Assembly: GCA_051885305.1 (NCBI GenBank)
Contig: JBJEWY010000071.1
Coordinates: 5,361-69,360, forward strand
Source of the DNA: Succinivibrio sp.
GTDB taxonomy: Bacteria; Pseudomonadota; Gammaproteobacteria; Enterobacterales; Succinivibrionaceae
Direction of reading: 5' to 3'
Length of the DNA stretch: 64,000 bases
Shown here: positions 19,275 to 45,000 of the stretch, one piece after another
Numbering within the stretch: position 1 is the first letter of the stretch
Layout of the letters: the number at the start of each line of letters is the position of its first letter
Notes under the pieces: model-generated
The model's input: the letters and a program-made list of their open reading frames with translations, nothing else
What the model was told of the DNA's origin: nothing
Database searches by the model: none
Program-made: the position numbers and the translations under genes

Positions 19275-19293
19275 GCGCACATAATTTGTGCTT

Positions 19294-19329
19294 AAAAAAA
19301 GCCTGTATTCTGATAATACAGGCTTTTTT
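19294..19329 (+). terminator. Intrinsic terminator after typA
   Basis: aaaaaagcctgtatt/aatacaggctttttt hairpin with U-tract. Confidence 0.85.
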
Positions 19330-19387
19330 ATTGCCGTTTTTATGATATCCATATGATTTATAAGTTCTTTCCATACTGAACCATAAT

Positions 19388-19422
19388 TGCACCATTTTAT
19401 AACAATGCACTATTTTTGTGCT
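19388..19422. promoter_or_regulatory. NtrC-type binding site(s) upstream of glnL
   Basis: TGCAC-TATTTTT-GTGCT at 19406-19422 plus half-site TGCACCA at 19388-19394; consensus is TGCAC-N7-GTGCA. Confidence 0.65.
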
Positions 19423-19488
19423 AATTTTCAAAATTATGATAAAGTAATGGATAATTTAGACTATCAAACTAATCAAAATGGATCATAA

Positions 19489-20583
19489 ATGGCTTTTAAA
19501 GACAAGGACAGTATTCTTGAGAATCTGACCACAGCAGTTTTACTGACTGATAAGAATTTCAAGATACTATACGCTAATATGGCAGCAGAACAGTTGTGTG
19601 GCATGTCACGCAACAAGCTTGTCTTTTTAAAAGTCATTAACTTCATCGACAGAAGTGAAGAGACTCTTTTAAACACTATAAGTGAGACCGATTTCTCTGA
19701 CGGTTTTCAGGGTTTCTCTGCAGCAGGTGTTACCTTCAGCCCGATTCCTGGCAAACATGTAAAAGTTGATTTTGTTGTATTCCAGTACACAAACAAAGAT
19801 ATAAACGGACTTCTCGTTGAACTTCACCCTGTATCTCAGCAGGAAAAACTGATAAAGCAGACTATTCAGAATGATCAGTATATGGCTGCAAGAGATCTGA
19901 TTAGAAGCCTTGCTCATGAGATTAAAAATCCGCTAGGCGGAATCAGAGGAGCTGCTCAGTTAATTGAAATGACCTATGGTAATACCGTTGACGGCATAAA
20001 AGATTACACAAAGGTTATCATTGAGCAAACTGACAGATTAAAAAGTCTGGTAAACAGATTATTAGGTCCGCAGAAACCAAATCCACTGGTCTTAGTTAAT
20101 ATTCACTACATTATCGAAAAGGTAATGTCTTTAGTTTCCATGCAGGAAGACTTCAAGGGTATAAAAGTCGTAAGAGATTACGATCCCTCACTTCCAGAGC
20201 TGAGCCTTGATATGGATTCAGTAGAGCAGGTCATACTGAATATTGTAAATAATGCAGTTCAGGCATTAAAAGAAGCCAATACACCAGATCCAACTATTAC
20301 ATTAAAAACTAGGGCAAGTATCAGACCGATTATTCGTAAAAAGAAATATCCTACTGCACTGCAGCTTTCTATTTCCAATAACGGTCCTGAAATTCCAGAA
20401 CATATCAAGCAGACTGTTTTCTATCCGATGGTTACAACTAAAACCAACGGTAACGGTTTAGGGCTGTCTATTGCCCTGAACATAATTGAACGGCACCACG
20501 GTACTATTGAATGCACTAGTGATGCTCATGAAACCTCATTTAAAATTATCCTGCCATTAAAAAGCAGAACCCATGGAGATTAG
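19489..20583 (+). CDS. glnL: Nitrogen regulation sensor kinase NtrB
   Basis: N-terminal PAS-like region, H-box LAHEIKNPLGGIRGAAQL, RDYDPSLPE, FYPMV, GLGLSIA. Confidence 0.92.
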   Translation: MAFKDKDSILENLTTAVLLTDKNFKILYANMAAEQLCGMSRNKLVFLKVINFIDRSEETLLNTISETDFSDGFQGFSAAGVTFSPIPGKHVKVDFVVFQYTNKDINGLLVELHPVSQQEKLIKQTIQNDQYMAARDLIRSLAHEIKNPLGGIRGAAQLIEMTYGNTVDGIKDYTKVIIEQTDRLKSLVNRLLGPQKPNPLVLVNIHYIIEKVMSLVSMQEDFKGIKVVRDYDPSLPELSLDMDSVEQVILNIVNNAVQALKEANTPDPTITLKTRASIRPIIRKKKYPTALQLSISNNGPEIPEHIKQTVFYPMVTTKTNGNGLGLSIALNIIERHHGTIECTSDAHETSFKIILPLKSRTHGD

Positions 20584-20585
20584 CT

Positions 20586-22028
20586 ATGAATCCTATGATT
20601 TGGGTCATCGATGACGATGCAAGTATCCGTTTCGTGTTTGACAAGGCGCTAGACGCTAACAACATTACCCACCGTCTTTTTGAAAACGGTGAGGCTGCTC
20701 TTGAGGCTTTAAAGGTTGAAACCCCTGATGTCATCGTATCTGACATCAAAATGCCTGGCATTGACGGTATTCAACTGGTAAAGGAAGTCCATGAGGTTGA
20801 TGAGCATATTCCTTTTATCATCATGACTGCCCACTCTGATCTTTCTGCTGCAATCGATGCTTACGAAGAAGGTTCATTTGAGTATCTGCCAAAACCATTT
20901 GATATTGAGCAGGCAATAAGTGTTATCAGAAGAGCTGCTGTTCATCGTGTAAACATGTTACAGATGCTTGATCAGAAACCTCACATCGAACAGCCGGTAA
21001 ACAATGATGGCTCAACATCTGAGGAAATTGAGATCATCGGTAAATCACCTGCAATGCAGGAAGTATTCAAATTCATCGGCAGAGTATCTAAAACTGATCT
21101 CCCTGTCCTTATTCATGGTGAAGTTGGAACTGGTCGCGGACAGGTAGCCAAAGCCCTTCACAATCACGGTGAAAGAAAGGGGCATAAGTTTGTATCACTT
21201 AATATGACATCCATTCCTCAGGAAATGGTCAAATATGAAATGTTTGGTGATGCTAGCAAGGATTTAAGCCAGAGCGCTATCGTAAAGGCTGACGGTGGTA
21301 CATTGTTCATCAATGAAATCAGTGACATGCCAATGGACTGCCAGAACAGACTTCTGCAACTGCTGCAGAAACAGGAATACTCACCTATCGGCTCAACCGC
21401 TCCTCTACATGCTGATGTAAGAATCATAGCTTCTACATCTCATGATCTCGAGCAGAAAATTGCAGAAGGCACATTCAATTCAGATCTCTACTACAGACTG
21501 AATATCATCAATATCAATATTCCACCTTTACGTGAACGCAACAATGATATTCCAATGCTTGCCAAGCACTTCCTTGCTCAAAGTGCAATTGACGGTCACA
21601 CAGAGCCTAAAAAACTGACATCTGAAGTGCTGGTATTCCTCTGCCGTCTGCCTTGGCCTGGAAACGTAAGACAGCTTAAGAATCTGTGCAAATACCTGAC
21701 CATCATGGTGACCGGAAGAGATATTCAGCTTGTTGATCTCCCATCAGAGTTCCTGCATGCTAACAGCAATCAGAACAAGACCTTGAATACCACAACTTCC
21801 CAAAACCGTGAGAATGCCACCTGGCAGGAGCTTTTAAGAAGCTGGGTCGATGGAAAGCTCAAAGCAGGTGAACACGATATTCTCACTGAAGCTGTACCTG
21901 AATTTGAAAGAGTTATGCTTGAGGCAACACTTACCTTTACTGGTAACCATAAACAGGAATCAGCAAAACTTTTAGGTTGGGGTAGAAATACATTGACACG
22001 AAAGATCAAAGAGTTAAATATCAACTGA
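20586..22028 (+). CDS. glnG: Nitrogen regulator NtrC with degenerate AAA+ domain (no GAFTGA)
   Basis: Receiver WVIDDDASIR..SDIKMPG, IIMTAHSDL, YLPKPFD; NtrC-specific HTH AKLLGWGRNTLTRKIKEL; follows glnL. Confidence 0.92.
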   Translation: MNPMIWVIDDDASIRFVFDKALDANNITHRLFENGEAALEALKVETPDVIVSDIKMPGIDGIQLVKEVHEVDEHIPFIIMTAHSDLSAAIDAYEEGSFEYLPKPFDIEQAISVIRRAAVHRVNMLQMLDQKPHIEQPVNNDGSTSEEIEIIGKSPAMQEVFKFIGRVSKTDLPVLIHGEVGTGRGQVAKALHNHGERKGHKFVSLNMTSIPQEMVKYEMFGDASKDLSQSAIVKADGGTLFINEISDMPMDCQNRLLQLLQKQEYSPIGSTAPLHADVRIIASTSHDLEQKIAEGTFNSDLYYRLNIININIPPLRERNNDIPMLAKHFLAQSAIDGHTEPKKLTSEVLVFLCRLPWPGNVRQLKNLCKYLTIMVTGRDIQLVDLPSEFLHANSNQNKTLNTTTSQNRENATWQELLRSWVDGKLKAGEHDILTEAVPEFERVMLEATLTFTGNHKQESAKLLGWGRNTLTRKIKELNIN

Positions 22029-22037
22029 TTCTGATAG

Positions 22038-22062
22038 AAACGCAGGTATAACCTGCGTTTTT
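22038..22062 (+). terminator. Intrinsic terminator after glnG
   Basis: aaacgcaggt/acctgcgttttt hairpin. Confidence 0.8.
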
Positions 22063-22160
22063 GTTTAAGTGGCGATACGCGCTTCACAAAAGAGAAAAGA
22101 TCTCTGATATATTTATTCGGTTATAACCTATTATCAAAGAGTAACTCTTGTGGAGGTATT

Positions 22161-22778
22161 ATGACTCAAACAAAGAATCACCCTGTCGTAGACAGCAATG
22201 ATATGATGCTTACCTTATGTCACAGTGTGGCAAGTGTTCTTACAACAGCAACAGGTAGCACAACCAAGTATGCACCATTAGTACAGAAAATCACAAAAAC
22301 ACTACTTACTCCAGATATTGGAACCTTTGTAATGTTTACCGGTTCTTTCTCAGGAATGGTTGTAATCAACTTCCCGAAAGATACCGCAATGGAACTGTAC
22401 ACAAGCTACATGAAAAACATGGGAATGTCAGATTCGGACATTGCCAAAAACTATACGTCTGATGAAGTAAGCAATACATTAGGTGAGCTGATGAACCAGA
22501 TCCTTGGTAACTTTACTCGCCAGATCAGTGAAGATTTGCATATAAGAATCGACCAGTCACAACCTAAAATGTTAGTATTACCACGTGAGGTGCAGATCAG
22601 CATTTCTGTAAACCTTGATAATCCGATTTTCGGTAAGGTAACATTCCATACTGAAAGTGGTAATGTTTTCTATGTAGAACTTGCAATGGATGACACCAGC
22701 TTCCTGGCAATTAAGGATATTGAACATAACTGCCAGCTTTCACCTGATGACATTCTTGAGCAATATCAACAGAATTAG
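22161..22778 (+). CDS. DUF3334 family protein (CheC/CheX-like fold)
   Basis: LCHSVASVL, FSGMVVINF, TSDEVSNTLGELMNQ (ExxN), FYVELAMD; family recalled from memory. Confidence 0.7.
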   Translation: MTQTKNHPVVDSNDMMLTLCHSVASVLTTATGSTTKYAPLVQKITKTLLTPDIGTFVMFTGSFSGMVVINFPKDTAMELYTSYMKNMGMSDSDIAKNYTSDEVSNTLGELMNQILGNFTRQISEDLHIRIDQSQPKMLVLPREVQISISVNLDNPIFGKVTFHTESGNVFYVELAMDDTSFLAIKDIEHNCQLSPDDILEQYQQN

Positions 22779-22784
22779 AGCTTA

Positions 22785-23432
22785 ATGACAGACATTATTA
22801 AAAAAAATGTCCTGAATTTTAGAGCAACAAAATTTGTAACCAGCGCCCCAGACATCTCAAAACTACCAGAGGATGCGGGCGCTGAGATTGCTATTATTGG
22901 CCGCTCAAATTCAGGAAAATCATCTTCCATCAACGCCATCTGTGATCAGAAAACACTGGCAAAAACAAGTCGCACTCCGGGAAGAACAAGACTTATCAAC
23001 CTGTTTAAGGTAAGTGACAGGAAATATCTTGTTGACCTTCCAGGTTATGGTTATGCCAAGGTTCCTGAGAACATGAAAAGACAGTGGCAACGCTCCATGA
23101 CAGAATATCTGCAACAGCGCAAATGCTTGTGCGGTCTTGTTGTAACCATGGATATTAGAACTCCTTTAAAGGATCATGACAGAATGATCATTGACTGGTC
23201 AATTGCTGCAAACCTTCCTTGCCTTATCCTTTTAACCAAAGCCGATAAATTCGGTGTCAACAAGCGCAAGGAAATGGTTGGTGAGGTAAAAGCCCAGCTC
23301 AGCGAGTTTGGTGGCAATTTCAAGATCATTGCTTTTTCAGCATTAAGAAAAATCGGTGTAGATGAAGTTCGTGAGGTTTTAGCCAACTGGTTTGAACTTT
23401 TCCATACAGATGCACCAGACCCAGAAGAATAG
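22785..23432 (+). CDS. engB: Ribosome biogenesis GTPase YihA/EngB
   Basis: GRSNSGKSS, SRTPGRT, VDLPGYGYA, TKADK. Confidence 0.95.
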   Translation: MTDIIKKNVLNFRATKFVTSAPDISKLPEDAGAEIAIIGRSNSGKSSSINAICDQKTLAKTSRTPGRTRLINLFKVSDRKYLVDLPGYGYAKVPENMKRQWQRSMTEYLQQRKCLCGLVVTMDIRTPLKDHDRMIIDWSIAANLPCLILLTKADKFGVNKRKEMVGEVKAQLSEFGGNFKIIAFSALRKIGVDEVREVLANWFELFHTDAPDPEE

Positions 23433-23458
23433 CAAAAAAAAAATAGAAATAAATAACT

Positions 23459-24076: not shown

Positions 24077-24346
24077 GGTTAAGCGATTAATCTCCTTTGA
24101 ATGTCAAAGCACCGTGTTTTTAGTGTATAATGGCCGGAAGTGCAAATGCGGCACGCCTGCCTTTAATCCATGCAAAACAGTTTTTTTTCTCAAATAATTG
24201 TTTGAGAGGTGTTTTGTTGACCTTAAAAGGCTGTATGCTATAAGCCGTGAGGCTTGATAAATTTGTTTTTAAATCAGTCGCAATAAAAAGACTGGTACCT
24301 ATTTTTTTCAGATCAGAAGATCTGATATTAACTGAAGGTAAATAAA

Positions 24347-24631: not shown

Positions 24632-24718
24632 TCTTGAGTGTTAACCGTTGATGTAAAACTTCGGTCAACATATAATTGATTTATCAACGATAAATCTTTT
24701 CATAGTTAGGGGATACAT

Positions 24719-26890: not shown

Positions 26891-26942
26891 TATTGCCATT
26901 CATGCAATTTTTAACCTATATTCAAAGTAGTTACTGATATAT

Positions 26943-29134: not shown

Positions 29135-29149
29135 TAATTATTTTTTGTG

Positions 29150-33099: not shown

Positions 33100-33432
33100 T
33101 CAGAACTCACCATCAAAGCTTTGCGATGAAATAGTATAGGACTCATAAACAGGTGAAATAAAAATCTTGCCATCACCAGGATTTCCCTTTTCACCTGTCA
33201 TTGCTGACTGCATGATTGTGCTGACCACCAGATCCTTCTCATCATCAGGAATCACAAGATAAAGCATAACCTTAGTCATTTCTTCGTATAAGACATCACC
33301 AACCTTTATACCTTTCTCTTTTCCTCTACCAGAGACGGTTGCTTTAGTTAAGGCACTAAATCCCTTGTTATAAAGAGCATCCTGAACATTCATTATCTTT
33401 TCAGGACGAACAATTGCAGTAACAGCCAACAT
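33100..33432 (-). CDS. PII-family regulator, NifI1 (nifHD-region GlnB-like 1) type
   Basis: AIVRPEK, short T-loop GRGKEKGIKVGDVLYEEMTK, TGEKGNPGDGKIFISPV..YTISS. Confidence 0.82.
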   Translation of the reverse strand: MLAVTAIVRPEKIMNVQDALYNKGFSALTKATVSGRGKEKGIKVGDVLYEEMTKVMLYLVIPDDEKDLVVSTIMQSAMTGEKGNPGDGKIFISPVYESYTISSQSFDGEF

Positions 33433-33504: not shown

Positions 33505-33557
33505 ATAAAATATGCACCGCAAGGGTGCATATTTGTACTGTTATCCAATTTGGTGCA
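33505..33557. promoter_or_regulatory. Perfect NtrC box inside an argH terminator-like hairpin, plus a second half-site
   Basis: TGCACC-GCAAG-GGTGCA at 33513-33529 within aaatatgcacc/ggtgcatattt; TGGTGCA at 33551-33557. Confidence 0.65.
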
Positions 33558-33572: not shown

Positions 33573-34958
33573 TTAATCTTCTCTGTCTTTTAAAAGATTT
33601 TCAAGATAGTCAATCTCTATGACGGTCTGTGCTGGTGCGACACCACCTTTGATATTGCGCTTTGCAAGAATACTGTCAAGCTGCAATACTGGATAAACGT
33701 CATCACCAATCACATCAGAGTATTCCTTAAACTCCTCAACGCTCAGATCCTCTAGGGCCTTCTGCTTTGAGATTGCATAAAGAACAACTCTACCAACGAT
33801 TGAGTGAGCCTCACGGAAAGGAATTCCCTTTGATACTAGATAGTCAGCAAGCTCGGTGGCATTTGAATAGCCACCTTTTGCAGCAGCCTCGGCATTTTCA
33901 GCATTAAGCTTAATACCTTCAAACACCAAAGAAGCCATATATAGACTGTCAATCCAGGTATCCATAGCATCAAACAGGCGTTCTTTATCTTCCTGAAGAT
34001 CCTTATCGTAAGCTAACGGAAGAGCCTTAACTGTTACAAGCATACCGGTTAAAGCACCAACTACACGACCGCATTTACCACGAATAAGCTCTAAGGCATC
34101 AGGATTCTTTTTCTGAGGCATTAAAGATGATCCTGAGGTTACCTTATCTGAAAGATCAACAAACTTGGCCTCACCAGAATTATAGATAATCAAATCTTCG
34201 GCAAAACGTGATAAATGAACCATGGAAATAGAAGCAACAGAAAGAAGCTCCATAACATGATCTCTATCTGATACACCATCAAGACTGTTGTGAGTAGCCT
34301 CCTTGAATCCTAAATCTCTTGCAAGCAAATCTCTGTCAATATCATAGGCAGTACCGGCTAATGCTGCAGAGCCTAATGGACAGGTTGCCATCAGATCTTT
34401 TGCATTCAAAAGACGCTGATAATCGCGCTCAAACATCTGAGCATAAGCTAATACCCAGTGAGAGAATGTAACAGGCTGTGCACGCTGTAAATGGGTATAT
34501 CCTGGGAAAATCTTACCCTGATTCTCTTTTGCAACCTTCAAAAGTTCCTTTTCAAGATGGGTAATTGCCTTTAGAGCATCATTGACTGCTTTACGGCACC
34601 AGAGTTTCAGATCAAGAGCTACCTGATCATTGCGGCTGCGACCTGTATGCAGTTTCTTGCCTAACGAACCAACCTTTTCGATAAGACGGCGCTCAACGTA
34701 TGAGTGAATATCCTCATCACCAGCTGTGGCAATACTGTGGATATCATTTGAAATCTCATCTAAAAGCTCTTTAAGAGCCTTTTTAAGATCAGCATTTTCC
34801 TGTGCAGTTAAAACACCGGCACGAGTAATAGCATCAGCCCAGCAGATTGAACCTTCAATATCCTCAATTGCCATACGGTAATCAAACTTTAAAGAATCAT
34901 TGTAATCTTTAAATCTCTGATCTGGTCCCTCAGTGAACCTTCCGCCCCATAAAGCCAT
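33573..34958 (-). CDS. argH: Argininosuccinate lyase
   Basis: [41 protein letters not shown]. Confidence 0.97.
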
Positions 34959-35064: not shown

Positions 35065-36861
35065 CTAGCATTCACTTTTCATGAATTTTCTAAAACTTCC
35101 ATACTCAGAGATATCACGGGCATTTGTTACAGCTTCTCCCTCACAGATAAAACCAGTAAGCATGGAACCATCTTCAAGTTCTACCTTTCCAAGCCCTAAA
35201 GGGTAGGGAATTAAAGACAGGAAATACCCAAGTGCCTCATAAGACAGCCTGTATACCTCAACTTCAAACTTACAGCCCGAATTCTCCTTTCTGATAAGCC
35301 CAGGCTTTTTAACAGCACAGGTACCATCTAAAAGATACATTCTGTAGTTTGCTGAAGTACTGCATGTTTTCACATACTCAGCCCCTAAATCATTTAACTG
35401 GAAATTTAAAGGCATGCCCTTTAAGTGTGCCCCACATACTACAACTTCGGTATAGCATTCAGGTGATTTCTTTACTTCATTTGTCTGATAAGGTAGCATC
35501 TTTGCTCCAGTTGGATATGAGGTAAAATTCGTATACTCTGATGCAACAGCAAGTAATGCCTCATCATAAAATGCTCTTGCAAACAAAGTGATTCCAAATG
35601 GAAGTCCTTTTTTCTCTCCTTCTGCTCTAAACCCAGCTGGCAGGGCCACAGCACAAAAATCCATGAGATTCATAAAGTTTGTGTAATACCCAAGGTTTGA
35701 GTTAAGAGAAATAGGATCATTTAAAACATCATTGATTTTATAGATGGTTCCTGTTGTTGGAGTTACTACAAAATCTATTCCTTTTAATATTTCCTCACTT
35801 ATTTTTTTGTATTCAGATAATTTAAGCTTATCTGCAAAAACATCTGCAGCAGTGAATTTTCTACTGCCACCGATGATTGTCTGAATAACAGGAAGGCATT
35901 TATCTAGGTTCTTTTCAAAGAAATCGTAATTACCAGAAAGACGCTCTGCTACAAATGATCTTTCATACAGAAGCTTTGCAGCATCTAAAAATGGTCTTAA
36001 ATTGATAGTCTTTGCTGTTCCTCCTATCTTTTCTAAAGACTCTACTGCCTTATAAAAAAGCTTTCTTGCTTCTTCATCATTAAAGAACTGCAGATCCTCA
36101 GCATCTGGAACACCAAACACGAAATTCTTTTTAAAGCCTTTTTTGATTGCTGGAGAACATCTTGCGTAAGGGTCGGAGCTGTCATAATTGCTCATGACAG
36201 AAAAAACCTTTGATAAATCATCAGTGCAACGGGCAAACACGGTAAGACAGTCTATACTCTTACAGGCTGGAACCACGCCAGTGTTACTAACTCTTCCACA
36301 TGTTCCTTTAAGACCTAAAATATTGTTAAATGCTGCAGGTACACGACCACTTCCTGCTGTATCAGTACCAAGAGAAAACAGAACCTGACCAGTTGCTACA
36401 GAAACAGCCGATCCTGAGCTTGAACCTCCAGAAACATAATCCTTGTTGATAGAGTTGTGGCATACACCATAAGGACTTCTTACACCAACTAGACCTGTTG
36501 CAAACTGATCCATATTGGTTTTTCCCAAAGGAATGGCTCCTGCTTTTATCAGAAGATCAACAGCATAGGCACTTTTTTCAGGGACATATTCATACTCTCT
36601 GCAGGCGGCAGTTGTAGGCATCTGCTCAAGATCAATATTGTCTTTTATGGCAAATGGTACGCCCCATAAAGGAAGATCTTTATCGCCATCAAATAATGCA
36701 TCAAGATACTCATCAAGTTTTTCTTCACTGATTACACTTATCCAGGCGTTTAAATCATCTTCTTTTATAAGTGTTAAAAGCTCATGGAACCACTGCCTTA
36801 AATCAAAACTTCCTGCTTTTACAGCCTCATGAAACTCTTTAATACTTGAAAACTCTTTCAT
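35065..36861 (-). CDS. atzF: Allophanate hydrolase
   Basis: PFAIKDNID, GKTNMDQFATGLVG, GGSSSGS, GTDTAGSGRVPA, GYYTNFMN, C-domain VCGAHLKGMPLN. Confidence 0.95.
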   Translation of the reverse strand: MKEFSSIKEFHEAVKAGSFDLRQWFHELLTLIKEDDLNAWISVISEEKLDEYLDALFDGDKDLPLWGVPFAIKDNIDLEQMPTTAACREYEYVPEKSAYAVDLLIKAGAIPLGKTNMDQFATGLVGVRSPYGVCHNSINKDYVSGGSSSGSAVSVATGQVLFSLGTDTAGSGRVPAAFNNILGLKGTCGRVSNTGVVPACKSIDCLTVFARCTDDLSKVFSVMSNYDSSDPYARCSPAIKKGFKKNFVFGVPDAEDLQFFNDEEARKLFYKAVESLEKIGGTAKTINLRPFLDAAKLLYERSFVAERLSGNYDFFEKNLDKCLPVIQTIIGGSRKFTAADVFADKLKLSEYKKISEEILKGIDFVVTPTTGTIYKINDVLNDPISLNSNLGYYTNFMNLMDFCAVALPAGFRAEGEKKGLPFGITLFARAFYDEALLAVASEYTNFTSYPTGAKMLPYQTNEVKKSPECYTEVVVCGAHLKGMPLNFQLNDLGAEYVKTCSTSANYRMYLLDGTCAVKKPGLIRKENSGCKFEVEVYRLSYEALGYFLSLIPYPLGLGKVELEDGSMLTGFICEGEAVTNARDISEYGSFRKFMKSEC

Positions 36862-36865
36862 AATA

Positions 36866-39800
36866 CTAGTCCTCTCTAATAATCATCAGAGGCTGACCTG
36901 AGGTTACAGCTGAGCCCTCACCTTTGATAATTCGGCTGACAGTTCCTGAACAGCTTGCAGCAATCTGAATCTCCATTTTCATGGATTCAACTATCATGAC
37001 TACATCGCCTTCTTTTACAGAATCGCCTTCTTTAACCAGAGTTTTCCATACACTACATGAAATTTCTGACTCAATTGCTGTCTCATTGTCTTCTAAAACA
37101 AGTTCTTCACTAGAAGTTTCTACAGTCTCCATCTGTGCTGAGAAATTAACCTGACCTGATTCAACCCAGCGCTGATACTCTGCATCAAACGCATCCTGCT
37201 GACGCTTTTTAGCTTTTACAATCTCATCATGATTATCTGTCAGAAGCTTCTTGTACTCAGCAAATGAATACTGGGTATCCTCAATTTTTATATGGTACTG
37301 ACCTAAAAGGAACTTATGACGAATATCCATCAGTTCATCATGGGTTACTTCAAAGAATCTTATCTGATCAAAGAAGCGTAACAGCCAAGGCTTCTGGAAC
37401 TCTTCAGTCTTATGATTACGATTCCACATCTGCAATGTTCTGCCAAAGAACTGATATCCACCAGGACCTTCCATACCGTATACGCACATATAAGCACCAC
37501 CAATACCAACGGCATTTTCAGGAGTCCAGGTTCGTGCTGGATTGTATTTGGTAGTAACCAGACGATGGCGTGGATCAATAGGAGTTGCAACAGGAGCACC
37601 TAGGTAAACATCACCTAAACCATAAACGAGGTAGGTAGCGTTGAAAATGATGTTCTTTACATCCTCTACTGAATCAAGACCATTTATTCGACGGATAAAT
37701 TCAATATTTGAAGGGAACCATGGAGCATTCTTTCTAACAAGTTCGTCATACTTCTTAATAGCGAGTCTTGTCTGCTCGTCATCCCAGGATACAGGAAGAT
37801 ACACTACTCTTGATGGAACAGTAATGGATTCAAGATCCGGCATGTTCTTTTCGATTTTTTCCATGATATCAAGAAGGTCATTACGATCAAGTTTAAGACT
37901 GTCAAAATGAACCTGTAAAGAACGTATGCCTGGGGTTAAATCAATAATTCCCTCAAGATTCATTTTCTTGAGTTCCATCATCAGAACATGAGCGCGGAAT
38001 CTTAATTCTAGATCAATTACCTGAGGACCGTATTCAACAAGAATATTGTCCTCACCGCTCATACGGTAGACAATATCTGTTCCATGGGTCACATCAGATG
38101 ACAATGTCTTAATTACTGCAGTCTCATAGGTACTTCTAGACCATGATGCGGTCACAGATTTGAGATCTTTAATGCTTGCAAGCTGAGCTGTTTCAAGAGC
38201 CTTAGCATCATCTAAAGAAACAGGAATAAACTTTACCTTGTCACCAGCTTTAAGCTGACCCATCTTCCAGAGATCAGCTCTTATGATTGTTGCAGGGCAA
38301 ACAAATCCGCCTAAGCTTGGGCCATCAGGTCCTAAGAGGATTGGCATATCGCCTGTAAAATCAATGGTACCAATAGCATAGGCATTATCATGAATATTTG
38401 ATGGATGTAAACCAGCCTCACCACCATTCTCTCTTGCCCACTCAGGTTTTGGACCAATTAGACGGATACCGGTTCTTGAGGAGTTATAGTGAACCTCATA
38501 TTCTTTGGAAAATAAGGTATCAATGTCATTTTTGGTAAAGAAATCTGGTGCACCATGCGGACCGTAAATAACTCTGATATTCCATTCATGGGTAATTTCA
38601 GGAATAAGTGATTCATCAATGCTTAATGATTTGATTGAACTGTCATATGCACTTATGTGCAATACGTCACCAGCCTTTAGGGCACGACCAGCATGACCAC
38701 CAAACATACCTAAAGTAAAGGTTGAACGGCTGCCAAGATACAGAGGACAGTTAAATCCTCCCTGTACTGCAAGATAAGCTCTGACGCCGCCTTCTTTTAC
38801 CTTGCCAAGTTTAAGAACCTGTCCTGCTTTCACTTTAAGAGGCTGGTACATCTTTACATCACAGCCATCTAAGGTTGCTTTGATTTCTGCACCTGTAAGA
38901 GCTATTTCAGAATCGCAGTTAAAAGAAAGTGTTGGACCTGATACTGTTATTTCAAGACCTGCTGCGTCCTCTGGATTATTCAGTAATCTGTTTGCAAGTC
39001 TGAATGAAAGGTTATCAAAAGGACCTGATGGAGGAACACCGACATCCCACATTCCCACACGTCCTGGGTAATCCTGAATGGTAGTCTGTGTTCCTGATGT
39101 CAGAATATCAATGGTAGTATCAGAGTATTTATAATCATTTAATGATCTTGTAAGCATTCTGCCCTGCAACAGAAGATCAGAAGCTAACAGATTAATTAAA
39201 TATCTCTGATTGGTTTCAATGCCATATACAAGAGAATCACTTAAGGTATCTTTTAATTTTGATATCGCATTTAATCTGTCCTCATCAAATGCAATCACCT
39301 TGGCAAGCATCGGATCAAATAAAGGACTTACAATAGAACCTGATTCAATCCAGGTATCAATACGGATATTCTTTCTATCCTGTTTTGGGAAACTTACTGA
39401 ACTTACAGTACCAGCGCTTGGTCTGAAATTCTTAGCGGGATCTTCAGCATATAATCTGGCCTCAATTGCATGTCCGCGAGGCTTTAAAGATTTTGAGATT
39501 TCATTTAAATCAGGTAGTTCATCACATCCTAACTGAAGCATCATCTTCACAATATCAACACCGTAAACCATTTCAGTTACACCGTGTTCTACCTGAAGTC
39601 TAGTATTAACCTCTAAGAAATAAAATTTTTCTGCATCTGCGTCATAAACATACTCAACAGTACCTGCTCCACGATATTTAACTATTGAGCCTAATGCTAC
39701 TGCTGTTTTCTGTAATTCCTGTCTTACCTCTTGAGTTAAACCAGGAGCAGGGCACTCCTCAATTACCTTCTGATTTCTTCTCTGAGTTGAACAGTCGCGC

Positions 39801-40474
39801 TCACCAATGGTAAGAATATTGCCCTTACCATCACCAAAAATCTGTACTTCAATATGACGGGCGTGCTCAATGAATTTTTCTAAGAATACACCACCGGTAC
39901 TAAAGTTACTCTGAGCTAAATGCTTTACTTTTTCAAAAGCCTCAGATAGTTCTTCAGCACTGTAACAGCGCTGCATACCAATACCGCCACCACCTGCGGT
40001 ACTTTTGAGCATAACAGGGTAACCAATCTTATCGGCATTCTCTAATGCCTCATCTGCAGTCTCCAGTAAAGATGTGCCAGGAGGAAGAGGGACCCCCGCC
40101 TTCTGAGCAATGGCTCTTGCTTCATGTTTCAGACCAAAGGAAATCATCTGTTCACTGGTTGGTCCTAAGAATACGACACCTTCCTTCTCGCAAAACCTTA
40201 CAAAATCAGGGTTTTCACTTAAGAAACCATAACCAGGATGAATAGCCTGTGCACCTGATTTCTTTACAATATCTATGATTTTCTGCTGGTCAAGATAGGT
40301 ATAACAAACAGCACCTTCACCTAAAGAATAGCTCTCGTCAGCCATTTGCACATGAAGACTGTCACGATCAGCCTCATTGTAGACAGCAACTGATTTAATT
40401 CCCATTTCTCTTAAAGTGAGAATAATACGGCAAGCAATTGCTCCGCGGTTGGCAATCAATACTTTTGAAAACAT
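36866..40474 (-). CDS. uca: Urea/guanidine carboxylase (biotin-dependent), probably guanidine-preferring
   Basis: BC domain KVLIANRGAIA; CT motifs HPSNIHD, TTKYNPART; biotin site ESMKME; start set at ATG 40474 with an AGGA SD. Confidence 0.95.
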   Translation of the reverse strand: MFSKVLIANRGAIACRIILTLREMGIKSVAVYNEADRDSLHVQMADESYSLGEGAVCYTYLDQQKIIDIVKKSGAQAIHPGYGFLSENPDFVRFCEKEGVVFLGPTSEQMISFGLKHEARAIAQKAGVPLPPGTSLLETADEALENADKIGYPVMLKSTAGGGGIGMQRCYSAEELSEAFEKVKHLAQSNFSTGGVFLEKFIEHARHIEVQIFGDGKGNILTIGERDCSTQRRNQKVIEECPAPGLTQEVRQELQKTAVALGSIVKYRGAGTVEYVYDADAEKFYFLEVNTRLQVEHGVTEMVYGVDIVKMMLQLGCDELPDLNEISKSLKPRGHAIEARLYAEDPAKNFRPSAGTVSSVSFPKQDRKNIRIDTWIESGSIVSPLFDPMLAKVIAFDEDRLNAISKLKDTLSDSLVYGIETNQRYLINLLASDLLLQGRMLTRSLNDYKYSDTTIDILTSGTQTTIQDYPGRVGMWDVGVPPSGPFDNLSFRLANRLLNNPEDAAGLEITVSGPTLSFNCDSEIALTGAEIKATLDGCDVKMYQPLKVKAGQVLKLGKVKEGGVRAYLAVQGGFNCPLYLGSRSTFTLGMFGGHAGRALKAGDVLHISAYDSSIKSLSIDESLIPEITHEWNIRVIYGPHGAPDFFTKNDIDTLFSKEYEVHYNSSRTGIRLIGPKPEWARENGGEAGLHPSNIHDNAYAIGTIDFTGDMPILLGPDGPSLGGFVCPATIIRADLWKMGQLKAGDKVKFIPVSLDDAKALETAQLASIKDLKSVTASWSRSTYETAVIKTLSSDVTHGTDIVYRMSGEDNILVEYGPQVIDLELRFRAHVLMMELKKMNLEGIIDLTPGIRSLQVHFDSLKLDRNDLLDIMEKIEKNMPDLESITVPSRVVYLPVSWDDEQTRLAIKKYDELVRKNAPWFPSNIEFIRRINGLDSVEDVKNIIFNATYLVYGLGDVYLGAPVATPIDPRHRLVTTKYNPARTWTPENAVGIGGAYMCVYGMEGPGGYQFFGRTLQMWNRNHKTEEFQKPWLLRFFDQIRFFEVTHDELMDIRHKFLLGQYHIKIEDTQYSFAEYKKLLTDNHDEIVKAKKRQQDAFDAEYQRWVESGQVNFSAQMETVETSSEELVLEDNETAIESEISCSVWKTLVKEGDSVKEGDVVMIVESMKMEIQIAASCSGTVSRIIKGEGSAVTSGQPLMIIRED

Positions 40475-40497
40475 GATGATATTCCTATATTGTACTG

Positions 40498-40538
40498 GCA
40501 GGCCGTCCTGCAATGGTGTTTTAACGAAGCCGTCTTCG
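40498..40538 (-). ncRNA. Guanidine-II (mini-ykkC) riboswitch directly upstream of the carboxylase RBS
   Basis: Minus strand reads CGAAG-ACGG-CTTCG, 13-nt linker, GCAGG-ACGG-CCTGC, then 11 nt to the AGGA SD: two G-C-closed ACGR tetraloop hairpins. Confidence 0.88.
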
Positions 40539-40584
40539 AACCAGCTGTGATTGCTTGTTATTATTCAGCTGGAAAAGGAGTGAG

Positions 40585-41223
40585 TTAATCCCAAACTAAT
40601 ACTTCAACTGGAGTTGGATTGTATGCGTTGCAAGGATTGTTCAGCTGAGGACAGTTTGAAATCAGAATTGTAGTGTCCATTAAAGCCTCAAATTCCACAT
40701 AGAATCCAGGTGCGCTTATACCATCAGCAAATGTCAGGTAACCATCTTCGGTTACAGGAACATTCATAAAGAAATTGATGTTGTGGGCTATATCTCTTTT
40801 GGTTAAACCAAATTCTCTTTTTTCATTTACTGCAAGCATCCATGAATCACGGCAAGCATGCATAAACTTCTTTTCAATTGCATAGCGTACTGTGTTGCTT
40901 TCTGTTGCGCAGGCCCCACCTAAAGTGTCATGACGTCCACAGTTATCTGCAACAATTTTCAGCATTGGATTATTGAAATTTGTTCTGAGTACTGTTCCTG
41001 TTGTCAGGAAAATGTTCATCTGCTCACGGATGGTATTTTCAGCGCTGTAACGCTCTTCTTTATTGTGGGTGTTGTAAAAAAGAGAATCTGATGCCTGATT
41101 TCCTTCAATATCTACCAGACGGAATTTCTGACCCTTTTTGATGTCATGAAGAAAATATGAACCTGCAGGTACTATTTCTCTGTATACGGCGTTCTCTGGT
41201 AATAATGAACTTTCTTTTTTCAT
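40585..41223 (-). CDS. cgdB: Carboxyguanidine deiminase subunit (DUF1989, urea carboxylase-associated protein)
   Basis: [46 protein letters not shown]. Confidence 0.85.
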
Positions 41224-41235
41224 CTTCTGTTCCCT

Positions 41236-41967
41236 CTAAAAAAGATCCTTGATGCCAAACATGTAACGTCTGGTGTTCTCAAAGCCACGCTTATTCTCAT
41301 CACAGTGAGTTCTGCACATATCAAATTCACCAGCAGGATCACAGCTGTAAACAGCATAGTGAACACCATGTCGAGGATAATCTTTTGCTGGATTAAGAGG
41401 ATGCGGACAGGTATGGAACATCACTAGAGTTGGCATCTCAAAACGTAGAGCAATGACATTACCCTTTTTGGAGTGGTTTTCCACAAATGAGAGATTGCCA
41501 TCATAATCTACTGAAACGCGTGAAAACAGATTCAGATTCATGTGCATATCTTTAGCACTTAATCCGTATTTGCCAAGTTCTACAAGGAAACTGTCAAAAC
41601 CGTTCTGTTTCCATTCATTACGATCCTTCTGATAATCTCTGTCGCCCCATTTCTTTTCAACCATTTTGCGATCGCAGTTACCTGTAACTGTATCAATCCA
41701 TCCGGTATCATCACGGACAACTGAGCACATTACTCGCCCCATATCACTGTATACACAGTTACCTTCAGTGAGCTTGAATGTATGCTGACACTTCAAGGTA
41801 TCTGGCGCATTGTATCTTTCACAAAGGTTGAGTGGGTTGAACAACATCATTCCAACATTTGCGCCTCCATCCACATCTGTAAACTCTAAAATTGAATTTG
41901 CAGGAAGGATGGCTGAAAAGTGAGCTGCACCAGGCATATCTTCCTGATAAATCAGTTTCTTTGACAT
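41236..41967 (-). CDS. cgdA: Carboxyguanidine deiminase subunit (DUF1989, urea carboxylase-associated protein)
   Basis: GGANVGM, ERYNAPDTLKCQHT, SDMGR, HTCPHPL, ENKRGFENT. Confidence 0.85.
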   Translation of the reverse strand: MSKKLIYQEDMPGAAHFSAILPANSILEFTDVDGGANVGMMLFNPLNLCERYNAPDTLKCQHTFKLTEGNCVYSDMGRVMCSVVRDDTGWIDTVTGNCDRKMVEKKWGDRDYQKDRNEWKQNGFDSFLVELGKYGLSAKDMHMNLNLFSRVSVDYDGNLSFVENHSKKGNVIALRFEMPTLVMFHTCPHPLNPAKDYPRHGVHYAVYSCDPAGEFDMCRTHCDENKRGFENTRRYMFGIKDLF

Positions 41968-42003
41968 TTTCTTATCCTCTTGTTTCTTTGTTATTTGAAA
42001 TAG

Positions 42004-42792
42004 CTAATTCTCCTGAGAATCAACCATTCCATCCTTAAGCTTCATATCGTAGGTTATAGTTGATCCAAGCGTATTCTTGTGGGTCTTTGCACTCTTGATC
42101 TTGTCAAATACCCAGAGCCTGCTTCCAAGCTTAAAGCCTTCACTCAAGTCATGAGTAACCATAAAAATTGTCAGATTATTCTGCTTCCATAAATCATGGA
42201 TGAGCTGGTGCATATCCTTTCTGATACCAGGATCGAGTGCGCCAAAAGGTTCATCTAAAAGCAGAATCTTTGGTTTCTTCATCAGTGCCTGTGCTATGGC
42301 AAGTCGCTGCTGCATACCACCTGAAAGTTCTGACGGATAGCGTTTTAAAGCATGACTTAAGCCAACCTTTTCAAGCATCTGTTCTGCTTCTGCTCTTATT
42401 TCCCTTTTCTTTGAACCTGAAATAAAACCTAAGAAATTCGATTCTTCAAAGGTTCTTGCTACCATGACATTTTCAAGTACGGTCATATGAGGAAAAACAC
42501 TGTACTTCTGAAAGACAATACCTCTTTCTTCGTTAGGCTCCTTGCTGATAGGCTTTCCTTCAAACAGCAGCTGACCTCTTGAACATTGTTCGGTACCTAA
42601 AATAAGTTTTAAAAAAGTACTCTTTCCACAGCCAGATGTTCCAATTACAGTAATGAATTCACCCCTGTTAATCTTTACATTGATCTTTTCAAGAATTACT
42701 GTCTGTCCATATTCCTTCCAAAGATTAACCGCCTCAATTATTGGGGTTTCTTCTGTACTTGATTGCAATTGAGTAGTATTCATGTAACCCAT
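42004..42792 (-). CDS. ABC transporter ATP-binding subunit (nitrate/sulfonate type; guanidine uptake)
   Basis: GTSGCGKST, LSGGMQQR, LLLDEPFGALD. Confidence 0.92.
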   Translation of the reverse strand: MGYMNTTQLQSSTEETPIIEAVNLWKEYGQTVILEKINVKINRGEFITVIGTSGCGKSTFLKLILGTEQCSRGQLLFEGKPISKEPNEERGIVFQKYSVFPHMTVLENVMVARTFEESNFLGFISGSKKREIRAEAEQMLEKVGLSHALKRYPSELSGGMQQRLAIAQALMKKPKILLLDEPFGALDPGIRKDMHQLIHDLWKQNNLTIFMVTHDLSEGFKLGSRLWVFDKIKSAKTHKNTLGSTITYDMKLKDGMVDSQEN

Positions 42793-42799
42793 CCCTTAT

Positions 42800-43609
42800 T
42801 TACAGGTAGTACCATTTGAAGAGTTTCTTTGAAATCAGCTTTAGGATCAGATCCATTGCAAAAGCAAGAATGGTAATCCAGGCTACATACGGAAGAATTA
42901 CAGACATATCAAGGTATCTTCTAACAAGGAAAATCCTGTATCCAAGTCCGCTGTTTGCTGCAATTGCCTCTGCTGAGATTAAAAACAGCCAGGCACTTCC
43001 TAAAGTCAGCCTAAGAGATGAAAACAGCTTAGGCATGATCTGAGGTAACAGCACTTTTGTCAGTATCTGTCCTGTGCTTGCACCTAAAGTAAGACTCTTT
43101 ACAATAATTTCCTGCGGTATGGCTCTTGTTGCCTGTTCAATATCGCGAATGATAAAAGGGCAGATTCCTATAATAATGAGCATTATTTTGGCAAAATCAC
43201 CCAAACCAAAGCTTATAAAAAGTATTGGTAATATTGCCATTGGAGGAATCAGTGAAATTACGGTTGTCAGCGGGCTGAACAGGTGCCTGAATACTGGAAT
43301 TGAGCCATTTAAAAGCCCCAGAACCAGTCCTACGATTCCGCTTACAGCAACACCAGTAAGCAGGAGCTTTAGACTTGATAAAGTATCGTTTATAAGAAGA
43401 ATGCTTCCGGTTCTTTTATCTGGCTCACTTACCAGTGCAACGATTTTATGTCCAATTGTTGACAGTGATGGTAACAGCTTATCGTTTGGGTTTATCCCTA
43501 AACGGCTTGCCGATGCAATGATATAAGCAAGGAACAATACCACAAAAGGTATAACAGTCAAAAAGAGTCTGTTTACCTTGTTTACGTCATAGTTAATCAT
43601 TTTGGACAT
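42800..43609 (-). CDS. ABC transporter permease (guanidine uptake)
   Basis: NDKLLPS, IPPMAILP, AWLFLISAEAIA..GLGYRIFLVRRY. Confidence 0.9.
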   Translation of the reverse strand: MSKMINYDVNKVNRLFLTVIPFVVLFLAYIIASASRLGINPNDKLLPSLSTIGHKIVALVSEPDKRTGSILLINDTLSSLKLLLTGVAVSGIVGLVLGLLNGSIPVFRHLFSPLTTVISLIPPMAILPILFISFGLGDFAKIMLIIIGICPFIIRDIEQATRAIPQEIIVKSLTLGASTGQILTKVLLPQIMPKLFSSLRLTLGSAWLFLISAEAIAANSGLGYRIFLVRRYLDMSVILPYVAWITILAFAMDLILKLISKKLFKWYYL

Positions 43610-43627
43610 AATACTTACCCGTAAATA

Positions 43628-44704
43628 TTAAAGTTTACCGTCTGCAGCCATCTGCATAAATTCAGGGGTAAAACGTAATTTGATGTTGTTCTTGTCACCG
43701 TATATGCCACTTGGTGTCTCAATACCAACATACTCGGCACTTGTTGCAGCATCACCAAACAGGCCATGTAAATATGAGAACTCAGCCATTGCCTTCATAG
43801 TAGAAAGGAGCTCTTTAGTTTTGCTGTAATCAGCTGCATCCTGAGCTTTGTAAAACAGATGAATAGTCTTAATTTGATCTTTGTAGTTCTGCATATCTGT
43901 GCCAGCTGCTTTTGCCATAATGGTTAAAGCTTCATCAGTCTTTTCTCCAGAACCACTCATGATGCCCATGATTTCGTACCATGCGCCTGCAAGGGCTTTG
44001 GCAAACTCAGGGTTTTCCTTGATGACTTCTGTCTTTACTACTGTTAAATCAAGAATCTCACCTGGGATGTTGCTTGAATCAAATACCTTGAAGGTGCCAG
44101 GATTTCCGGCCTCAATTTCAGATACGATAGGATTCCAGGTTACAACAGTATCAACATCGTCTGTGGTATATGCTGATGCCATATCTGAATCTGAGGTATT
44201 AACGACTGTAATATCCTTCTCACTCATACCATTCTTTTCTAAAGCACGAGCTAAAAGATAATGAGATACTGAAAGCTCAACTAAATTGATATTCTTGCCT
44301 TTAAGCTCTTTAACTGACTGAGCAGACTTTGACAGAATTGCATCAGTACCGTTTGAGTAATCACCAATAATCACTGCGGTGCTGTCTACGCCACCTACTG
44401 CTGGAATATCAAGTGCATCCATACTTGCCATAGTGCAGGCATCAAAATCACCTGCTGTATACTGGTTTATTGATTCGGCATAATCATTTACCTGAACAAT
44501 CTCAATTTTGATATTGTATTTATCAGCCCACTTGTCCATGATTTTGCTTGCTGCTGCATAATCGTATGGCATCCAGCCAGCAAAAATTGTCCAGGCAACC
44601 TTAAATGAATCTTTTGCCTGTGCTTCAGAAATACAAGAACCAAATGCAATTGATGCAGCTAATGTGGTTGCCATTACCTTTTTTACAAATTTAAAATTCT
44701 TCAT
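43628..44704 (-). CDS. ABC transporter substrate-binding protein (urea-carboxylase-associated; probably binds guanidine)
   Basis: Signal peptide; WTIFAGWMP, NDYAESINQY, DYSNG, LVELSVSHYLL, TWNP; start ATG 44704 with AGGAG SD. Confidence 0.88.
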   Translation of the reverse strand: MKNFKFVKKVMATTLAASIAFGSCISEAQAKDSFKVAWTIFAGWMPYDYAAASKIMDKWADKYNIKIEIVQVNDYAESINQYTAGDFDACTMASMDALDIPAVGGVDSTAVIIGDYSNGTDAILSKSAQSVKELKGKNINLVELSVSHYLLARALEKNGMSEKDITVVNTSDSDMASAYTTDDVDTVVTWNPIVSEIEAGNPGTFKVFDSSNIPGEILDLTVVKTEVIKENPEFAKALAGAWYEIMGIMSGSGEKTDEALTIMAKAAGTDMQNYKDQIKTIHLFYKAQDAADYSKTKELLSTMKAMAEFSYLHGLFGDAATSAEYVGIETPSGIYGDKNNIKLRFTPEFMQMAADGKL

Positions 44705-44729
44705 GATCGCGCTCCTACTTTCTTGAGGC

Positions 44730-44765
44730 AAAAAAAAAGGAGATCGGCTCATACTGCCTATCTCC
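44730..44765 (-). terminator. Riboswitch-controlled intrinsic terminator (expression platform)
   Basis: Minus strand GGAGATAGGC...GCCGATCTCC followed by T9; the 5' arm overlaps the aptamer 3' end. Confidence 0.85.
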
Positions 44766-44873
44766 TCCCGGGCTTTTATCCCGCCGTGAACCTGAATATG
44801 TTTTCTTCAGGTTAGATTCTCTCGGACCGAACATTACATCCAAAACAGTTGCAACTGGAACCCTAGAACCTAA
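44764..44873 (-). ncRNA. Guanidine-I (ykkC-yxkD) riboswitch
   Basis: Minus strand has GGTTCTAGGGTTCC...GGTCCGAGAG...CACGGCGGGATAAAAGCCCGGGAGG, upstream of the ABC-cgdAB-carboxylase operon. Confidence 0.95.
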
Positions 44874-45000
44874 TTACAGCGTAAATATACCAAGCAACTA
44901 CGTTAATTTACGTACACGCACTATTTATAAACACGAAATGTAAGTGATTTAGGTAAATGCACTACTTTAGGATGGATAATTCATAGTATTAGTGCACATT

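Follow-up and report, generated by a model that had tools for sequence, protein, structure and literature searches.

Here we analysed a window of 64,000 nucleotides from the draft genome of a Succinivibrio sp. (contig C71, positions 5361-69360; 2.1 Mb in 121 contigs, 88% complete), in which three units lie close together: an ntrBC (glnLG) pair, an orphan gene for a PII protein of the NifI1 type, and an operon for guanidine use. The best explanation, to which we assign a probability of roughly 0.7, is that these are three units of differing age, namely an NtrC that functions without sigma-54, a PII gene that was acquired later and a recently acquired guanidine cassette. A sigma-54-independent Ntr regulon, which a preliminary description of the window had proposed, appears well supported by the sequence comparisons, albeit only in a refined form. 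A single co-evolved system is not supported, and only partial support exists for the three units working as one circuit: they are of three ages, and housekeeping genes (yihA, gmk, rpoZ, spoT, a lysophospholipase gene, a CobW-like GTPase gene, ompA, coaBC and dut) lie between them. The proximity of the units is probably coincidental, because their ages differ.

NtrC is the textbook activator of sigma-54 promoters; the GAFTGA motif in its L1 loop contacts sigma-54, and the Walker lysine and aspartate are needed for ATP hydrolysis. The atypical glnLG pair without glnA, as it had been described, is found in the window directly after typA, while glnA is located on a separate contig (C39). The features of this locus are as follows.

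17436-19274, plus strand: typA, encoding a translational GTPase (NCBIfam TypA, 932 bits; synteny).
19388-19422, plus strand: a weak (TGCACCATTTTATAACA) and a strong (TGCACTATTTTTGTGCT) NtrC box next to each other upstream of ntrB, the strong one being the top match to the position weight matrix (PWM) in the genome.
19489-20583, plus strand: ntrB/glnL, a canonical NRII histidine kinase (NF008293, 335 bits, cut-off 240; PAS, HisKA and HATPase domains).
20586-22028, plus strand: ntrC/glnG variant (TIGR01818, 531.9 bits, cut-off 558.6; motif changes by alignment).

By family score the product of the second gene is an NtrC ortholog (∼532 bits with the NtrC model versus 304 bits with the NtrX model), and it falls below the curated cut-offs of both TIGR01818 and PRK10923 (522.4 versus 620). 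The gene was translated and the protein aligned to solved structures, among which Brucella NtrX (5m7n), likewise without GAFTGA, was the best match by sequence. In the L1 loop (residues 220-231) six amino acids are deleted and GAFTGA is gone; FGDASKDLSQSA is found where Aquifex NtrC1 has its GAFTGA stretch. Moreover, R184 replaces the lysine of Walker A (GTGR versus GTGK) and N243 replaces the aspartate of Walker B (FINE versus FLDE). The receiver with the phospho-acceptor Asp53 is intact (Response_reg, 93 bits), as is the Fis-type helix-turn-helix (HTH; HTH_8 domain found). The Sigma54_activat domain scores 164 bits, and the cognate ntrB is located directly upstream.

To place these changes, the NtrC proteins of 81 sampled genomes of the family, with genera coded g1-g17, were compared. 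The matches split into two groups, clade A, which comprises g1, g3, g4, g5, g12, g15, g16 and g17 (8 genera; 63-100% identity to the NtrC of the window), and clade B, which comprises g6, g8, g10, g11, g13, g14 and one g7 genome (45-51% identity). In an alignment of 34 sequences (24 of clade A and 10 of clade B), the L1 deletion, GTGR and F[IV][NS]E are common to 24/24 clade-A proteins, whereas GAFTGA or GSFTGA, GTGK and FLDE are present in 10/10 clade-B proteins. The clade-A sequences form one group on a long branch. The receiver aspartate within SDI[KR]MPG is kept in 34/34 sequences, and the recognition helix GWGRNTLTRK is identical in both clades, with the exception of two g11 sequences. Within clade A the HTH shows 88% identity and the AAA+ domain 71%, compared with 74% for the AAA+ domain within clade B. 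Since the clade-A AAA+ domain is as conserved as that of clade B, it would still be under selection, and it is presumably retained as an oligomerisation scaffold.

The two clades also differ in gene order, which is glnA-ntrB-ntrC in clade B and typA-ntrB-ntrC in clade A, with typA just upstream of ntrBC in all clade-A loci for which the flank was fetched. The clade-A glnA is divergent from typA in some genera and lies elsewhere in the genome in the Succinivibrio genus. Upstream of glnA, a sigma-54 promoter was identified at a distance of 63-117 nt in every clade-B genome examined and in the g2 genome, in most of them with NtrC boxes ∼100 nt further up, whereas it was found in 0/21 clade-A genomes. 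Likewise, amtB has a sigma-54 promoter at a conserved position in 15/15 clade-B genomes and in the g2 genome, but none at a consistent position in any of 29 clade-A genomes, most of which keep an NtrC-like box ∼80-150 nt before the amtB start codon. Most g7 genomes gave no NtrC match, and in these both the sigma-54 promoter and the NtrC boxes are missing at glnA as well as at amtB (loci L226, L234, L236, L238, L334, L335, L344 and L346-L348), which suggests that g7 represents a second, different exit from sigma-54-dependent Ntr control within the family.

Sigma-54 itself has not disappeared. The rpoN gene is present in this genome and in 77/81 genomes of the family, and perfect TGGCAC-N5-TTGCW motifs occur 11 times in the genome, compared with ∼1.3 expected as estimated from base composition. 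The intergenic ones lie mostly before flagellar genes (flgE, rod genes, fliL and a flhG-like gene), so sigma-54 appears still to be in use at flagellar promoters. Of the four genes in the genome that resemble those for bacterial enhancer-binding proteins (bEBPs), only an FlrA-like and an FlrC-like gene keep GAFTGA together with both Walker motifs. Before the three units of the window, TGGCAC-N5-TTGCW with up to two mismatches was absent, in agreement with what had been noticed by eye. The idea of a nitrogen regulon free of sigma-54 can therefore be retained as regards an NtrC that lacks GAFTGA and the Walker residues and as regards the lost glnA and amtB promoters, but not in the sense of a genome without sigma-54, as rpoN is present and serves the flagella. 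It had also been considered that canonical genes elsewhere might fully explain the regulation. Indeed, canonical glnA, glnD, two canonical PII genes (glnB and glnK) and amtB, next to one of the PII genes, are all found in the genome; yet the presence of rpoN, glnB/glnK and glnD would not restore the canonical mechanism, because this NtrC is predicted to be unable to couple to sigma-54.

We next considered the distribution of NtrC boxes. A PWM was built from the ntrB-upstream sites of the loci of the genus, which score 12.6-29.5; since this matrix scores down the GC-rich spacer in the perfect PII box, mismatch counts for the core only were used instead. With no more than one core mismatch, TGCAC-N7-GTGCA is present 39 times in the genome; 15 of these sites lie between genes, intergenic DNA making up 12.8% of the sequence, and the 3 perfect cores in the genome are all intergenic. 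The genes beside the intergenic boxes with at most one mismatch are largely nitrogen-related (ntrB, amtB-glnK, urtA, a gene for a glnH/argT-like binding protein, speA, sstT, gdhA, with tandem boxes, and a puuD-like gene); cysK and pntA are further neighbours. Among sites with two core mismatches there is no enrichment (0.23 per kb intergenic versus 0.25 per kb coding). The upstream regions of the three units, 519 nt in total, contain five TGCAC[C/T]A half-sites, compared with 0.15 expected (post hoc p ∼5e-7). The recurrence of GCAC(C/T)A sites before all three units, on which the preliminary description had relied, is thus real but uneven: the site is conserved at ntrB, perfect at the PII gene and weak in the guanidine leader.

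Most genomes of the genus have the strong ntrB box (one mismatch), TGCACTATTTTTGTGC(T/C), 80-106 nt upstream of the start codon. It is followed after ∼17 nt by a -10-like TAAAGT, and a second half-box lies near the start codon, a layout that looks like autoregulation. The E. coli glnL promoter is autoregulated by NtrC. A further NtrC-like box (PWM 19.7) combined with a small hairpin, GCGCACATAATTTGTGC, is found at 19276-19292 between the typA stop codon and the typA terminator, and was not seen in the loci of relatives.

Based on these results we propose that NtrC left sigma-54 at the base of the clade of 8 genera, keeping its phospho-acceptor, its AAA+ scaffold and its DNA-reading helix. Nitrogen status would still be read by the canonical chain from GlnD via GlnB/GlnK to NtrB, and phosphorylated NtrC would bind TGCAC-N7-GTGCA boxes and work on sigma-70 promoters without ATP hydrolysis. 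Scavenging genes would be activated by it in the classical way, and its own promoter would probably be repressed. As candidate targets we note amtB-glnK, urtA, the gene for the glnH/argT-like binding protein, gdhA, speA, the puuD-like gene and sstT.

NtrC proteins that use sigma-70 have precedents. The NtrC of Rhodobacter capsulatus and the Rhodobacterales acts with sigma-70 (Bowman and Kranz, 1998, as cited in 10.1101/2023.06.06.543975), and that of R. capsulatus needs ATP binding, as reported in the citing work (10.1101/2023.06.06.543975). The clade-A protein resembles it in being an ortholog accompanied by NtrB, in the deletion of L1 with GAFTGA, in the retained receiver aspartate and in having targets without sigma-54 promoters. 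It differs in that the Walker A lysine is replaced by arginine and the Walker B aspartate by asparagine or serine throughout the clade, the loss in the alphaproteobacterial Rhodobacterales being an independent one; rpoN, moreover, is retained here for flagella. The NtrC of Caulobacter crescentus likewise lacks GAFTGA and acts at sigma-70 promoters, and its Walker motifs are needed for growth on ammonium (10.1101/2023.06.06.543975). As in clade A, the L1 deletion takes out GAFTGA; however, the Walker A lysine and Walker B aspartate that are replaced in clade A are present in Caulobacter, where NtrC still drives glnBA, while most glnA genes in clade A have no clear box upstream. VpsR of Vibrio cholerae also acts at sigma-70 promoters and does so without a need for ATP (10.1101/2023.06.06.543975). 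The clade-A protein shares with VpsR and NtrX the combination of receiver, AAA+ and HTH without GAFTGA, but unlike these two, which are not NtrC orthologs, it keeps the NtrC recognition helix, NtrC-type boxes and NtrB. Compared with enterobacterial glnALG, NtrB, the GlnD/PII sensing genes, the box TGCACC-N5-GGTGCA and the presence of a box at the ntrB promoter are the same, whereas the targets have no sigma-54 promoters, ntrBC lies after typA and away from glnA, and the AAA+ domain is catalytically degenerate. The Ntr targets of E. coli include amtB-glnK, amino-acid binding proteins and polyamine genes, and similar classes are found here. To our knowledge, the few NtrC proteins known to lack GAFTGA and to use sigma-70 are all alphaproteobacterial (Rhodobacterales and Caulobacter) and still need their ATP motifs. 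Judging from the alignments, clade A appears to represent an independent, gammaproteobacterial loss of GAFTGA that goes further, as the Walker A lysine and the Walker B aspartate are also gone. No literature on Succinivibrio NtrC was found in a search that left subscription journals largely outside and is not proof of absence. Since a sister clade has canonical NtrC and sigma-54 promoters at glnA and amtB, the family offers paired natural proteins and promoters for studying a switch from motor to activator. In addition, Succinivibrio is an abundant genus of gut and rumen, in which automatic annotation would wrongly imply sigma-54-dependent Ntr control.

The second unit is located on the minus strand and comprises the following features.

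33100-33432, minus strand: gene for a NifI1-type PII paralog, orphan, 110 aa (alignment to named homologs; Pfam P-II only 68 bits).
33508-33534, minus strand: argH terminator hairpin, a palindrome (terminator scan).
33513-33529, minus strand: perfect NtrC box TGCACC-N5-GGTGCA inside the argH terminator palindrome (genome motif scan).
33541-33557, minus strand: weaker NtrC box before the PII gene (motif scan).
33573-34958, minus strand: argH, encoding argininosuccinate lyase, upstream of the PII gene in every ortholog locus.

The orphan NifI1-like nature of this gene, as first described, was confirmed by alignment with named homologs: the T-loop is 4 residues shorter, the B-loop carries the insert TGEKGNPGDGKIF, and the protein ends in a YTISS tail; the neighbouring genes are argH and dut. 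The other two PII proteins of the genome are canonical with a full T-loop. The protein thus shares with NifI1 of nif clusters, to which it is 54-64% identical, the short T-loop, the TGEKGxxGDGKIF insert and the YTISS tail, but no nifI2 partner was found for it, it is not encoded beside nifH, and it has Glu39 where most have Gln. Homologs of 54-59% identity lie in the order nifH-nifI1-nifI2-nifD in 31/51 metagenome homolog loci longer than 5 kb. In this genome, with three PII genes only, two of them canonical, nifI2 was not found, and neither nifI2 nor nifH lies beside the PII gene.

Orthologs (75-83% identity) are restricted to the 8 species of the genus that are closest, and the gene order around them is argH-PII-dut throughout. 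Of 26 genomes sampled from the genus, 8 thus have the gene, compared with 8 whole genera for the altered NtrC, which indicates that the PII gene would be far younger than the NtrC change. A role of this non-canonical PII as a possible sensor, which had been suggested, was not borne out, in view of this distribution and of the canonical glnB, glnK and glnD. Given its later origin relative to the NtrC change, and with canonical sensors in place, the gene is probably an NtrC-controlled output rather than a sensor. Its box is the only perfect TGCACY-N5-RGTGCA of the genome, and TGCAC/GTGCA half-sites occur in the argH-PII spacers of 6/7 orthologous loci, one of them at a fixed distance of 32-34 nt before a conserved TAA(A)GTG motif. 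In terms of the proposed mechanism, one sub-lineage of the genus would have gained a NifI1-type PII, inserted after argH, most likely as an output of NtrC.

Some further observations concern this gene. ArgH covers only positions 1-459 of the 624-position PRK12308 model, of which the C-terminal part is absent, and the PII gene occupies the spot where the C-terminal extension of ArgH would come. A nitrogenase-like cluster is located on another contig (C105:6432-11955, L118-L123) and contains two NifB-like radical-SAM genes and NifD/E-like, NifK/N-like and NifH genes; the NifD/E-like product scores 159 bits, far below the cut-off, while NifH passes with 459 bits. This type of cluster, which is not canonical nifHDK, is found in 5/81 genomes of the family, with a partial match in a sixth, and a tie between it and the PII gene was rejected, as the two do not consistently co-occur. 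A second group of orphan NifI1-type PII proteins (57-59% identical) was found in gut metagenome contigs (L259:1507-5874, L264:1390-5879 and L276:2762-5899), in a conserved operon consisting of genes for a class-III aminotransferase, an Fe-alcohol dehydrogenase, PII and an APC amino-acid permease. This points to at least two recruitments of the NifI1 subfamily into the catabolism of amines or amino acids, with the gene placed immediately ahead of that for a transporter. Few descriptions seem to exist of NifI1-type PII proteins that are encoded away from nif clusters.

The third unit, the guanidine operon, lies on the same strand, on which the order of transcription is ddl with its terminator, the guanidine operon, a gap of 106 nt, argH, a gap of 140 nt and the PII gene. 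Its features are listed in this order.

45010-45035, minus strand: ddl terminator, just upstream of the leader half-sites.
44958-44996, minus strand: candidate NtrC half-sites TGCACTAATACTATGAA (2 core mismatches) and TAGTGCA, 25 nt apart (motif scan).
44763-44877, minus strand: guanidine-I riboswitch aptamer (RF00442, 80.1 bits, cut-off 63).
44730-44769, minus strand: guanidine-I terminator hairpin with a U9 run (fold).
43628-44704, minus strand: substrate-binding protein of an ABC importer (TIGR03427, 503 bits).
42800-43609, minus strand: permease of the ABC importer.
42004-42792, minus strand: ATPase of the ABC importer.
41236-41967, minus strand: UAAP1, carboxyguanidine deiminase type (CgdAB; models of the UAAP pair TIGR03424, 325 bits, and TIGR03425, 289 bits).
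40585-41223, minus strand: UAAP2, carboxyguanidine deiminase type (CgdAB; same pair of models and scores).
40498-40541, minus strand: guanidine-II (mini-ykkC)-like element (Rfam 22.9 bits, cut-off 32).
36866-40474, minus strand: urea/guanidine carboxylase (TIGR02712, 1835 bits, aligned from residue 15 of the open reading frame; likely start ATG at 40474).
35065-36861, minus strand: allophanate hydrolase, last gene of the operon (TIGR02713, 714 bits).

The operon is therefore complete, as had been stated, with importer, UAAP1/UAAP2, carboxylase and allophanate hydrolase. Guanidine carboxylase has Asp instead of Asn at the substrate-specificity position (PMC12186494), and guanidine carboxylase operons under guanidine-I and guanidine-II riboswitches are known (PMC12186494; PMC5558903). 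The operon shares with these the gene set, the guanidine-I terminator switch at the head and guanidine-II before the carboxylase gene. The guanidine-II-like element, located in the 110-nt spacer between UAAP2 and the carboxylase gene, consists of two 5-bp hairpins with ACGG loops closed by G-C, 13 nt apart, with the carboxylase ribosome binding site AGGA 11 nt after the second hairpin. It aligns over the entire RF01068 model and yet stays below the Rfam cut-off, because its stems are A/U-richer than those of known elements. No other pair of hairpins with ACGR loops and stems of 5 bp or more exists on either strand of the 2.1-Mb genome, in which 144 single hairpins of this type occur. In the 165 nt upstream of the first aptamer, a tandem second guanidine-I aptamer was looked for and not found.

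For comparison, 80 related operons were fetched via the UAAP2 protein (67-73% identity; L136-L215), mostly from marine Gammaproteobacteria. An ACGR hairpin pair was found in 59/80 of them, nearly always 100-200 nt after UAAP2. Of 14 loci scanned with Rfam, 14/14 have guanidine-I at the head of the operon and 7/14 pass the guanidine-II cut-off at the same spot; in the 7 without a passing match, paired ACGR hairpins are still there in most. The dual-riboswitch operon of the preliminary description is thus substantiated by one switch that passes Rfam and a second, guanidine-II-like one below the cut-off whose position is conserved, and this two-switch layout appears to be real and the standard build of the cassette.

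The distribution within the family is different. Guanidine-I occurs in 2/81 genomes, the other being G017, which was rejected for comparison of the leader, since its genome is GC-rich and its switch, of another type, lies before a small gene and lacks an NtrC box. The genes found upstream of argH in six close relatives match contig C43 of this genome, and both the operon and ddl are missing there. The GC content of 0.37-0.41 across the operon, compared with 0.394 for the genome, gives no sign of foreign origin; it is only distribution and synteny that point to the operon being a strain-specific, recent acquisition.

In the related cassettes, a sigma-54 promoter is located 63-120 nt upstream of the aptamer in 12/14 and a motif within 350 nt in 13/14, several of them with NtrC boxes ∼100 nt above the promoter. 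Among 45 related loci with the aptamer core at the expected place, the sigma-54 motif was found in 32/45, compared with 1/45 in a control stretch. Expression under low nitrogen and in the presence of guanidine therefore seems to be the usual logic of this cassette in relatives. In the leader of this genome, by contrast, the sigma-54 promoter is absent, in a host family otherwise without the operon, and its absence fits, because the host NtrC could not use one. This missing promoter is the sole unusual point of an operon whose genes and two switches are otherwise ordinary. No explicit statement that one operon has both guanidine switch classes or a sigma-54 promoter was found in a literature search with the same limit as above. 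The AND logic that had been proposed for the operon accordingly proved to be the normal design of the cassette elsewhere, via sigma-54, while here it has in its favour only one weak box and one half-site. Guanidine itself would act at two RNA switches, through anti-termination in the leader and through translation of the carboxylase, and nitrogen gating may have been regained, by way of sigma-70, with the half-sites that lie ∼85-120 nt upstream of the aptamer.

Whether NtrC controls the guanidine operon here is, in our estimation, an evenly balanced question. It is only slightly less probable that a weak constitutive sigma-70 promoter drives the operon, whose sole control would be its two riboswitches, the TGCAC half-sites of the leader being due to chance. 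TGCACTAATACTATGAA has a PWM score of 6.4, compared with 12.6-29.5 for the ntrB-upstream sites, and belongs to the class with two mismatches, which is no commoner between genes than inside them; ∼29% of the related cassettes likewise have no sigma-54 motif, and no close relative carries the operon. Chance alone fits poorly with two perfect half-site heptamers in 165 nt, where 0.05 are expected, and with the fact that only 5 such intergenic pairs exist in the genome, most of them beside nitrogen genes (3 of the other 4 precede ntrB, gdhA and the puuD-like gene). These same pairs, together with the enrichment of heptamers before all three units, would also favour a single integrated circuit, with an operon that depends on phosphorylated NtrC as well as guanidine and a NifI1-type PII that passes nitrogen status on to NtrB. 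A search of the guanidine leader gave no consensus sigma-70 promoter, which fits an activator-dependent promoter, and nitrogen gating is the norm for the cassette elsewhere. Such a circuit is nonetheless quite unlikely, as PII is confined to 8 close species while the NtrC variant spans 8 genera, canonical GlnB, GlnK and GlnD are present, the operon is strain-specific with a weak leader site, and housekeeping genes separate the units. A more far-reaching reading, which we consider rather doubtful, holds that the cassette entered a host whose NtrC had already left sigma-54, that its ancestral sigma-54/NtrC promoter was then replaced by a sigma-70 promoter with NtrC half-sites, rebuilding the AND gate, and that the orphan PII is a new NtrC-controlled signal protein without NifI2 and with a non-nitrogenase target. 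If true, the clade would be a natural experiment in which an ATP-driven enhancer-binding protein became an ATP-independent classical activator and its regulon was re-promoted gene by gene.

Several points weigh against the favoured explanation. Activation through sigma-70 is deduced only from the missing sigma-54 promoters and from precedent. In clade A, the region upstream of glnA mostly has no clear NtrC box, so that the NtrC of this clade may have shed some of its targets or serve chiefly as a repressor. The genomes compared are kin, and the contrast between the clades goes back to a single evolutionary event, or to two when the g7 loss of ntrBC is counted. In addition, the perfect box of the PII gene doubles as the stem of the argH terminator, and the guanidine-leader site falls in the unenriched class with two mismatches. 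The lack of a box at most clade-A glnA genes would equally suit an NtrC that is a degenerate remnant and acts only as a repressor or autoregulator or has little function, ammonia being plentiful in gut or rumen. Its catalytic residues are missing, most genomes of g7 no longer have ntrBC, the strong ntrB box adjoins a -10-like element, a typical position for repression, and a study of the rumen makes the case that Ntr control can often be dispensed with in that habitat (PMC13196213). We regard this as unlikely, since the full-length frame and all domains are kept across 8 genera with an AAA+ domain as conserved as in canonical NtrC, most clade-A genomes have kept boxes at amtB, several scavenging genes are likewise preceded by boxes, and the cognate NtrB is intact. 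That NtrC still uses sigma-54 by way of a non-canonical contact and non-consensus promoters is scarcely credible: rpoN and a recognisable Sigma54_activat domain are present, but the GAFTGA loop, the Walker A lysine and the Walker B aspartate are all gone, and no -24/-12 element was found at ntrB, glnA, amtB, the PII gene or the guanidine leader, while the sister clade has conserved ones at glnA and amtB.

Two minor observations relate to sigma-54 elsewhere in the genome. The fourth bEBP-like gene, which has an RtcR-like N-terminal part (L010, contig C19:2955-3407), reads GAYTGL instead of GAFTGA and may represent another regulator with weakened sigma-54 coupling. A perfect sigma-54 motif is located 63 nt upstream of a SieB-like superinfection exclusion gene (L128, contig C16:4427-5101), an odd sigma-54 target.

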